Shown: piece by piece, positions 2,642 to 3,961 of the stretch | Layout of the letters: the number at the start of each line of letters is the position of its first letter | How positions within the stretch are numbered: position 1 is the first letter of the stretch | From: Eledone cirrhosa | Taxonomy: Eukaryota | Direction of reading: 5' to 3' | Length of the DNA: 64,000 bases | Assembly (NCBI GenBank): GCA_964016885.1 | Contig: CAXHJY010001284.1 | Coordinates: 1 to 64,000, forward strand | The notes under the pieces: model-generated | The model's database searches: none | The model's input: only the letters and a program-made list of their open reading frames with translations | Told to the model about the DNA's origin: nothing | Position numbers and translations under genes: made by a program

Positions 2642-2802
2642 CACAGAACATATATAATCAAGGTTTAGCAAATAAGAAAAAGTTTCAAAATAAATTTTTA
2701 AAAATCAACTTTACTCACTTTATTCTCATCTCGGGAACAATTTTGAATATCGCCAGTTCGTAATTTGAACTCAGGAATTTTATATTCTCCGAGTGAAATG
2801 AT

Positions 2803-2886
2803 CCTTCTGACGAGAGTTTAACTTTGCAATGGATGCCGTAAGGACTGTCCATTTATTTTTGAGTCTCGAAACCGATTCGGTAAAGG
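2803..2886 (+). ncRNA. Type I hammerhead ribozyme, monomer 1
   Basis: Stem I cctt/aagg; core CTGACGA 2807-2813; long stem II capped by a gtaa tetraloop hairpin; GAAA 2868-2871; stem III ACCG-att-CGGT; GUA site, predicted cut after 2882. Confidence 0.8.
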
Positions 2887-3282
2887 TAACCATAGTGAGT
2901 AAAGTTAATTTTTTAAAATTTATTTTGAAACTTTTTCTTATTTGCTAAACCTTGATTATATATGTTCTGGGTCGTTAATTTATTAACCTGCAATTGAACC
3001 ATATTGGCATATGGTTGGACAATACATGTGTCCCTAAGCGCTTTGTGCGTGTAGGGATATATACTTTATTATTAACTCCTCTTGGTCGAGAAAAAATTTG
3101 GTCGTCTGACTGCTGCTAGTTATAGTGGTAGTAGACTGACCTCCCTGCCTTTGCTTCTATCTTTACATACGGCGCTTGAAGGAATTGCTCCTACATCATT
3201 TATTCTCATCTCGGGAACAATTTTGAATAGCGCCAGTTCGTAATTTGAACTCGGGAATTTTATATTCTGCGAGTGAAAAGAT

Positions 3283-3366
3283 CCTTCTGACGAGAGTTTA
3301 TCTTTGCAATGGATGCCGTAAGGGCTGTCCATTTATTTTTGAGATTCGAAACCGATTCGGTAAAGG
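3283..3366 (+). ncRNA. Type I hammerhead ribozyme, monomer 2
   Basis: Same fold; stem II base gagttt/agattc; predicted cut after 3362. Confidence 0.85.
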
Positions 3367-3762
3367 TAACCATAGTGAGTAAAGTTAATTTTTTTAAATT
3401 TATTTTGAAACTTTTTCTTATTTGCTAAACCTTGATTATATATGTTCTGGGTCGTTAATTTATTAACCTGCAATTGAACCATATTGGCATATGGTTGGAC
3501 AATACATGTGTCCCTAAGCGCTTTGTGCGTGTAGGGATATATACTTTATTATTAACTCCTCTTGGTCGAGAAAAAATTTGGTCGTCTGACTGCTGCTAGT
3601 TATAGTGGCAGTAGACTGACCTCCCTGCCTTTGCTTCTATCTTTACACACGGCACTTGAAGGAATTGCTCCCACATCATTTATTCTCATCTCGGGAACAA
3701 CTTTGAATAGCGCCAGTTCGTAATTTGAACTCGGGAATTTTATATTCTCCGAGTGAAAAGAT

Positions 3763-3846
3763 CCTTCTGACGAGAGTTTATCTTTGCAATGGATGCCGTA
3801 AGGGCTGTCCATTTATTTTTGAGATTCGAAACCGATTCGGTAAAGG
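3763..3846 (+). ncRNA. Type I hammerhead ribozyme, monomer 3
   Basis: Same fold; predicted cut after 3842. Confidence 0.85.
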
Positions 3847-3914
3847 TAACCATAGTGAGTAAAGTTAATTTTTTAAAATTTATTTTGAAACTTTTTCTTA
3901 TTTGCTAAACCTTG

Positions 3915-3961
<47 letters not shown>

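Follow-up and report, generated by a model that had tools for sequence, protein, structure and literature searches.

Hammerhead repeats with units of a few hundred bases, among them pDo500 of crickets and the repeats of newts and schistosomes, are described as satellites. For the metazoan non-LTR retrozymes, the papers that define them infer mobilization by Penelope-like elements (PLEs) from shared ribozymes, co-occurrence and similarity to PLE pseudo-LTRs (pLTRs), and they propose, without showing it, that a PLE enzyme reverse-transcribes the circles made by the ribozyme (PMC7229834; bioRxiv 10.64898/2026.07.22.740005). According to the available text of a 2020 review, no motif identifies the mobilizer of animal retrozymes (PMC7761336), and the 2026 preprint, as far as its text was available, leaves the retrozyme mechanism for elucidation and reports in vitro cleavage of only one of nine Xenopus retrozyme dimers (bioRxiv 10.64898/2026.07.22.740005).

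PLE insertions are characterized by partial tandems, inverted 5′ copies and a tail of 30-40 bp that is often one-sided, and the PLEs called Naiads have (TA)n targets (Craig et al. 2021, PMC8557442). In vitro, a PLE reverse transcriptase (RT) cleaves AT-rich DNA on both strands, extends each of them and starts at two internal RNA sites, which define the tail; a dimer is predicted (Frangieh et al. 2024, PMC11167929). The role of the PLE hammerhead and the origins of the tail and of the inversion are left open in the portions of this literature available to us.

Here we describe an element from Eledone cirrhosa that qualifies, by its sequence, as a metazoan non-LTR retrozyme, with predicted self-cleavage and a predicted circular RNA. 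It was found in a 64,000-nt stretch of contig CAXHJY010001284.1 (positions 1 to 64,000, forward strand), referred to below as the window; all coordinates without a locus name are positions in this window.

Results

Anatomy of the window element

TRF reported a repeat with a period of 480, 2.5 copies and 97% matches at 2719-3923. The motif CTGACGA starts at 2807, 3287 and 3767, and GAAACCGATTCGGTA ends at 2882, 3362 and 3842. A sequence-only reading of this DNA had described three hammerheads 480 bp apart, the absence of a credible ORF, a 76-bp inverted 5′ arm and (TA)n flanks, and each of these features was recovered: the cores recur at the TRF period, the longest stop-to-stop frame lying fully within the element is 70 aa, the arm agrees with 2894-2969, read on the opposite strand, at 74 of its 76 bases, and TRF placed (TA)n-rich target tracts at 2490-2641 on the left and 3917-4051 on the right. 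An ORF encoding RT and GIY-YIG domains, the mark of an autonomous PLE, is absent from the window element. The GC content is 0.31 over 2001-4000, flanks counted in. The flanks are microsatellites, and no clear target-site duplication was found at family copies; in retrozymes such a duplication, where there is one, exceeds 4 bp. None of the locus maps examined shows an LTR arrangement.

Throughout, +1 is the first base 3′ of the predicted cut. The inverted arm (2644-2719, minus strand) corresponds to +12 to +87 of the monomer, and its head-to-head junction lies at 2719. The plus strand then continues with a 5′-truncated first lap (2719-2882, +317 to +480), monomer A, which extends from cut to cut over 480 nt and is the predicted circle (2883-3362), monomer B, also of 480 nt, which has seven differences from monomer A and is likely a local duplicate (3363-3842), and a terminal segment, +1 to +81, that stops at the end site designated A and merges with (TA)n (3843-3923). 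The type I hammerheads, recognized from the sequence, occupy 2803-2886, 3283-3366 and 3763-3846 on the plus strand, with predicted cuts after 2882, 3362 and 3842. In the first of them stem I pairs 2803-2806 with 2883-2886, CUGACGA is at 2807-2813, the stem II region is at 2814-2867, GAAA is at 2868-2871 and stem III reaches 2881. Stem I is CCUU/AAGG. The stem II region, of 54 nt, and stem III, ACCG-auu-CGGU, agree with the sequence-only reading.

Within monomer A, the most conserved block of the unit (+61 to +140; 2943-3022, plus strand) contains a hairpin at 2974-2988 and may be the region where the RT binds and starts. End site A (+81, TTATATAT; 2956-2963, plus strand) is the commonest 3′ end of the family and a putative RT start. 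End site B (+181 to +192) lies at 3063-3074 on the plus strand, and the ‘tail’ between the two sites, about 109 nt, is at 2964-3074 on the same strand.

Two further high-copy repeats are located in the same TA tract, one on each side of the element (2341-2490 and 4125-4255); the repeat at 4125-4255 has 1,408 candidates in the genome, often as inverted pairs. An empty or allelic site for the window locus was not found with the flank used, which is itself a repeat. At 2893-2902 (+11 to +20), the commoner variants keep GTGAGT, GTAAGT, AG/GTAA and CAG/GTAC. This motif resembles a splice donor and is possibly a remnant of a PLE 5′ UTR intron.

The predicted hammerhead ribozyme

Rfam searches returned no hammerhead at E≤1 over 1-8000 or at E≤10 over 2700-3900, probably because stem II has 54 nt. 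The window hammerheads had been called intact. This holds for the core, but the active fold lies 3.4, 4.5 and 4.5 kcal/mol above the minimum-energy fold. Among 160 family ribozymes the median penalty is 1.5 kcal/mol, with 58 of the 160 within 0.5 kcal/mol of the minimum, and each window ribozyme carries a substitution at the base of stem II; by these models, the window ribozymes are among the less favored of the family for the active fold. Stem II had also been read as capped by a GUAA tetraloop, a feature that is not conserved between subfamilies.

Of 202 complete family laps, 163 retain an intact core. Three intact cores are present in the window element, at least two in 20 of 210 arms, and up to nine in the longest insertion described below. 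Divergence is 2.4% in the core, 3.5-4.1% in stems I and III, 11% in loop III, 11% in stem II and 6.9% in the rest of the unit, a contrast between core and rest that is inflated by overlap of the sampling motif with part of the core. Compensatory changes are independent of this bias. Stem I occurs as ACCUU/AAGGU, GCCUU/AAGGC and ACCCU/AGGGU across subfamilies, and the base of stem II has at least five paired versions (GAGUUU/AGACUC, GAAUCU/AGAUUC, GAUUCU/AGAAUC, AAGUCU/AGACUU and UGCUCC/GGAGCA). RNAalifold applied to 14 units found two-sided changes at 18 of 116 predicted pairs and recovered the stem II base; as it pairs the 3′ strand of stem I elsewhere, the consensus itself does not predict the ribozyme. 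Core conservation together with covariation indicates that the predicted ribozyme is under selection. At the level of the family, then, the description as a non-coding tandem type I hammerhead element stands, with cores in tandem units, covarying stems and no inner ORF.

As circles, the monomers are predicted to fold into a string of local hairpins, with z=-6.75 (monomer A, against shuffles) and z=-4.13. Both end sites are U/A-rich. Site A falls largely in the loop of a hairpin in the circle prediction, where site B comes after a long hairpin.

A dispersed family

The window element is one copy of a dispersed family with over a thousand sites in the genome. In the 3.0 Gb searched, a 23-mer over the cut site had 975 exact matches (0 for its reversed control), a motif at +56 to +76 had 1,553 (control 0) and a motif at +92 to +106 had 2,394 (control 13); because the median divergence of a lap from the column majority is 5%, these exact counts are lower bounds. 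The monomer query produced 2,516 candidates, of which 40 were scored. Our census of ends covers 210 non-redundant arms from 153 loci, taken from the top matches plus two position-ordered samples (first 100 listed matches of two motifs, contig C1).

A sister subfamily (70-80% identical, unit of about 486 nt) and a young subfamily (79% identical, 483-nt unit) have the same ends as the main family. A distant hammerhead family with a 469-nt unit has 2,286 candidates and ends at +86 and +191. Divergence in the block +61 to +140 is 1.8-3.4% per 20-nt bin, compared with 6.9% elsewhere, and a related motif is present in the distant family. Loci of the distant family include L092:6695-7410 and L383-L412, and a short motif around end site A is common to them and the main family. 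Another repeat family (L232:5500-6510, period about 660, and L101 at about 1670-2500) also has hammerhead-like cores and weakly matches, by profile, the conserved block that lies between sites A and B.

Fixed 3′ ends and their pairing

Family copies show 5′ truncation, partial tandems and an inverted 5′ copy, as PLE insertions do. Their 3′ ends are concentrated at two places: 130 of the 210 arms end at +77 to +84 (125 at +81), 60 end at +181 to +192, and 20 end elsewhere. In the ordered sample of 78 loci, 88 of 91 site A or B ends are followed by an AT-rich flank, and the 5′ ends are spread over the unit. When two arms joined head to head both end at these sites, one ends at A and the other at B. 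This was the case for 24 of 24 pairs in the ordered sample (P=6e-8 under independent 50:50 choice) and for all 36 pairs with both ends on-site among the 45 of the full set, the other nine having an off-site end. The same pairing was seen at young loci (20/20), and mixed ends were found in 8/8 among the nine pairs of the distant 469-nt family. The window pair, +87 with +81, is one of the nine off-site pairs and lies outside the rule; the end of its inverted arm, +87, is neither of the usual sites and was classed as ‘other’ in the census.

The mechanistic evidence comes chiefly from the two fixed 3′ ends and from their pairing, neither of which the sequence-only reading had noted. Because this is the anatomy described in the PLE literature, we read sites A and B as RT start sites and +82 to +190 as a long tail. 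A one-sided tail is known qualitatively for PLEs, and the portions of the literature available to us described neither this family, which Repbase or Dfam may catalogue, nor a retrozyme with fixed double ends, nor a count of A+B pairing.

Runs of at least four TTA come after 7 of the 60 B ends but none of the 130 A ends (p=2e-4; for example L074, L116, L130 and L255), and in solo arms the median (TA)n is 32 at 3′ junctions versus 12 at 5′ junctions. RT stutter at the start site could account for these observations, as could later slippage or target deletion.

The template

In the main family, laps of the same arm differ by 4.2% and laps of different loci by 9.8%, the within-arm value being the lower in 123 of 128 comparisons. 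For opposite arms the difference is 4.3%, versus 9.6% between loci (lower in 77 of 83). Likewise, shared-variant rates are 3.5-3.6% for laps in an arm and for opposite arms, versus 0.9-1.0%. In the main family alone, age or subfamily could also cause this similarity.

The young subfamily allowed a closer view. At its 40 scored candidate places, full units share 99-100% identity with the unit of L313 (G000:C1:82114000-82123000), a 4.4-kb insertion with 8.8 laps ending at +80 and an inverted arm ending at +188, in which the laps and the inverted arm contain two mismatches in all. The young set comprises 28 loci, 20 of which were picked as multimers; L313 and L363-L382 are among the young loci. 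Cases of a variant at a locus that were covered by at least two laps numbered 52 in which all laps carried it, 47 in which one lap did and five in which some did; assembly polishing could homogenize tandem units, yet the 47 single-lap variants remain. Nine all-lap variants are private to one young locus, and three (137A, 250T and 450G) are in both inverted arms. All 117 cut-site junctions examined in the young subfamily are free of indels, two having substitutions. A donor locus with a daughter's all-lap variant in a single lap was not found among the loci examined, and so we infer the monomer bottleneck. Judged from these sequences, the private all-lap variants, their sharing by both arms and the indel-free junctions are most simply explained by a single monomer-length template copied from both starts, and a ligated circle fits the precision of the junctions.

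The same PLE-borrowing element could instead use an uncut linear multimeric transcript as its template, with the ribozyme acting late or occasionally. In vitro, insertion of a PLE was normal with ribozyme mutants, and the RNA chiefly used was unprocessed (PMC11167929). Homogeneous multimers, L313 among them, do exist and could hand all-lap variants to their daughters, and the read-through of the cut site seen in about 110 of 116 cases in family copies would be expected here too. However, a one-unit template is the simplest source of nine private all-lap variants and their presence in both arms, and both arms can be multi-lap copies of one sequence (L373, L368). Single-lap variants recur between loci at only three positions (32, 33 and 75), in or beside T/A runs, and the ribozyme is conserved with covariation. 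We therefore consider an uncut template unlikely.

A template that is cut to a linear monomer but never closed, with the RT jumping at each lap from the 5′ end of the monomer back to the 3′ end of the same molecule, would explain the all-lap variants equally well. Six 5′ ends lie near the cut in 1,139 nt at risk, about twice the background, but this excess is not significant (p=0.14), and all 117 junctions lack indels. End-to-end jumps by an RT such as that of R2 usually add or lose bases. Jumping of this kind thus appears improbable, more so than copying of an uncut multimer. The pile-up of 5′ ends at the cut was also considered as a sign of cleavage in vivo and was set aside (0.53 versus 0.27 per 100 nt, with the same p=0.14).

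Beyond 480 nt, older copies show 0.60 stops per 100 nt, compared with 0.23 up to that length (p=2e-4). Collision of the RT with its own cDNA after one lap was rejected as the reason. The rise is gradual and young copies run for 3-9 laps, and therefore later loss of units is the likelier cause in old copies.

Age of the window copy and its third unit

The laps of the window copy differ from the column majority at 5/164, 13/480 and 12/480 positions. The two full units differ from each other at 7/464 columns, whereas the partial first lap differs from the next at 8/148 (Fisher p=0.013). Both full units also carry 89G, 110A, 120T and 442G, each of which is present in 3-5% of family laps; 442G lies in the region covered by the partial first lap and is absent there. 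This contrast between units and the shared uncommon variants make local duplication or homogenization after insertion the more likely source of the third ribozyme, and the sequence fits best with a 1.5-lap insertion followed by such an event. The sequence-only reading had suggested that the multimer records an RT going round a circular template. At the window this is probably wrong, but multi-lap copying of one template does apply to young members of the family. The window copy is decayed and aged, and the main interest lies in the young subfamily elsewhere in the genome more than in this copy.

Local growth is likely the true origin of the third unit at the window, and one might extend it to all arrays, which would then be satellites grown from dispersed monomers by unequal crossing-over. 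The longest arrays, though, are found at the youngest loci, and these differ from one another in 5′ phase, each with an inverted arm whose sequence is that of its laps. As an account of the arrays in general, local growth is thus very improbable.

Relation to PLEs

PLE-type frames with RT and GIY-YIG domains are present in the genome, up to 938 aa in length (L091), and autonomous PLEs of this genome have the same two-end pattern as the family. This shared end anatomy would be expected if the copies were fragments of the pseudo-LTRs of an RT-coding PLE and its long copies had escaped sampling, the outcome that the sequence-only reading had named as contrary to its own proposal. None of the family copies examined was of this kind. 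Copies longer than one unit continue into the preceding unit and never into an ORF, and no same-phase sequence is shared by any two of 125 non-redundant 5′ flanks. Neither BLAST nor a family profile detected homology of the element to PLE ends at 87 loci representing about eight PLE families; the 87 comprise 80 PLE loci and seven family loci, mostly chosen for a nearby PLE fragment, and cover a minority of the 10,596 GIY-YIG candidates in the genome. The pseudo-LTR explanation is thus already largely refuted, and we give it the least credence of all those considered. From the combined features we conclude that the element is very probably a PLE-mobilized, non-autonomous hammerhead element.

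A 22-nt match of the element to another repeat was discarded (antisense strand, E=2.9). In two head-to-head chimeras a family arm is joined to a PLE arm, at L270:5328-7660 to the short end of a Poseidon-like PLE and at L012/L271 to the long (endonuclease) end of a different PLE. We did not use these as pointers to the partner, as they involve two different PLE families and may be secondary deletions.

Other PLE-related and repetitive sequences were noted in the window. Two insertions of a different PLE family lie in (TA)n at 27573-28560 and 43954-44550, their arms joined head to head. Each has a short end paired to a long end and hammerhead-like cores; the first contains a remnant of the GIY-YIG C-terminus. 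Isolated small type I hammerhead motifs of the PLE kind, with a palindromic stem III, occur at 43353 and 51089 (plus strand) and at 33602 (minus strand), and a similar motif at about 4718 (plus strand) has a mutated core. RVT_1 frames at 10912-12813 and 14739-15482 (plus strand) belong to unrelated non-LTR retroelement fragments, and a 31-bp minisatellite with 156 copies and 94% matches occupies 19312-24148.

Discussion

We consider it probable that the element is a non-autonomous non-LTR retrozyme in which a predicted self-cleaved monomer of ~480 nt is circularized and reverse-transcribed round the circle by a borrowed PLE enzyme. According to this model, a copy with two ribozymes would be transcribed, and the hammerheads, predicted to be active from their intact core and covariation, would excise a monomer. 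Ligation of this monomer into a circle is suggested by the anatomy of the insertions and by analogy with the retrozymes of corals, mussels and axolotl. A PLE GIY-YIG endonuclease would then nick a (TA)n tract, and the RT would prime inside the unit, at A (+81) or at B (about +190), where the observed ends lie. Where both strands of the target are used, one arm would start from A and its partner from B, copying a common template, and the two would meet head to head. We observe the pairing and the variants that both arms share; coupling of the two events would account for them. As the insertion anatomy suggests, the RT would cross the cut site precisely, for up to about nine laps, and stop at scattered points. 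Old copies would later lose or duplicate units locally, and the window copy would be one such aged copy.

A more specific version of this model can be put forward tentatively. A dimeric Penelope-type enzyme on one ribozyme-made circle would nick both strands of (TA)n and place one RT at each fixed site, and both RTs would roll until they meet head to head. The circle route, seen here in a retrozyme that would still be active, would then explain in general how pseudo-LTRs, inverted 5′ copies and one-sided tails arise in PLEs. As an adjunct to this proposal, telomerase-like stutter at the start sites may lengthen the microsatellites.

In this family a retrozyme directly shows the PLE end signature, which is unusually direct genomic evidence for the mechanism that has been proposed. 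The family includes a very young subfamily, with its multi-lap insertions of one template sequence, and it defines two putative start sites and the conserved block between them. The young loci (L313 and L363-L382), with insertions of up to 8.8 laps, are the best material for experiments, and their 483-nt unit is a natural substrate with which circular and linear templates, and paired priming, could be tested in the existing in vitro PLE assay.

Compared with the satellites of the pDo500, newt and schistosome type, this family consists mostly of short dispersed insertions with marks of retrotransposition. It resembles the metazoan non-LTR retrozymes as described in the available text of PMC7229834 and bioRxiv 10.64898/2026.07.22.740005 in its non-coding tandem units with a type I hammerhead in each, its GC content below 50%, its structured monomer, the presence of PLEs in the same genome and the absence of any LTR that we could find. 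The length of the element fits the range of 51-972 bp given by Li, Clavereau and Pollet 2026 (bioRxiv 10.64898/2026.07.22.740005), whereas at 480 nt it exceeds the circles of 170-400 nt of Cervera and de la Pena 2020 (PMC7229834). It differs from these retrozymes in its stem II of 50-58 nt, which Rfam misses, in its (TA)n targets and in the lack of a clear target duplication. Two fixed internal 3′ ends and strict A+B pairs are further differences, neither being described in the portions of PMC7229834 or of the preprint available to us.

Among the PLEs described in PMC8557442, the non-autonomous Chlamys elements such as MRC1 also have pLTR-like insertions and multicopy head-to-tail insertions. 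However, MRC1-type elements resemble their autonomous partner at the 3′ end, whereas this family has no homology to a partner in the loci screened, and they belong to a group reported to be without canonical hammerheads (PMC8557442). Compared with EN+ PLEs, the family has no ORF, a tail of about 109 nt instead of 30-40 (PMC8557442), a ribozyme with a closed stem III and up to 8.8 laps per insertion. Its insertions nevertheless resemble those of EN+ PLEs in their 5′ truncation, partial tandems, inverted 5′ copy and (TA)n targets, the last as in Naiads, and in the one-sided tail with two end sites downstream of the hammerhead (PMC8557442; PMC11167929).
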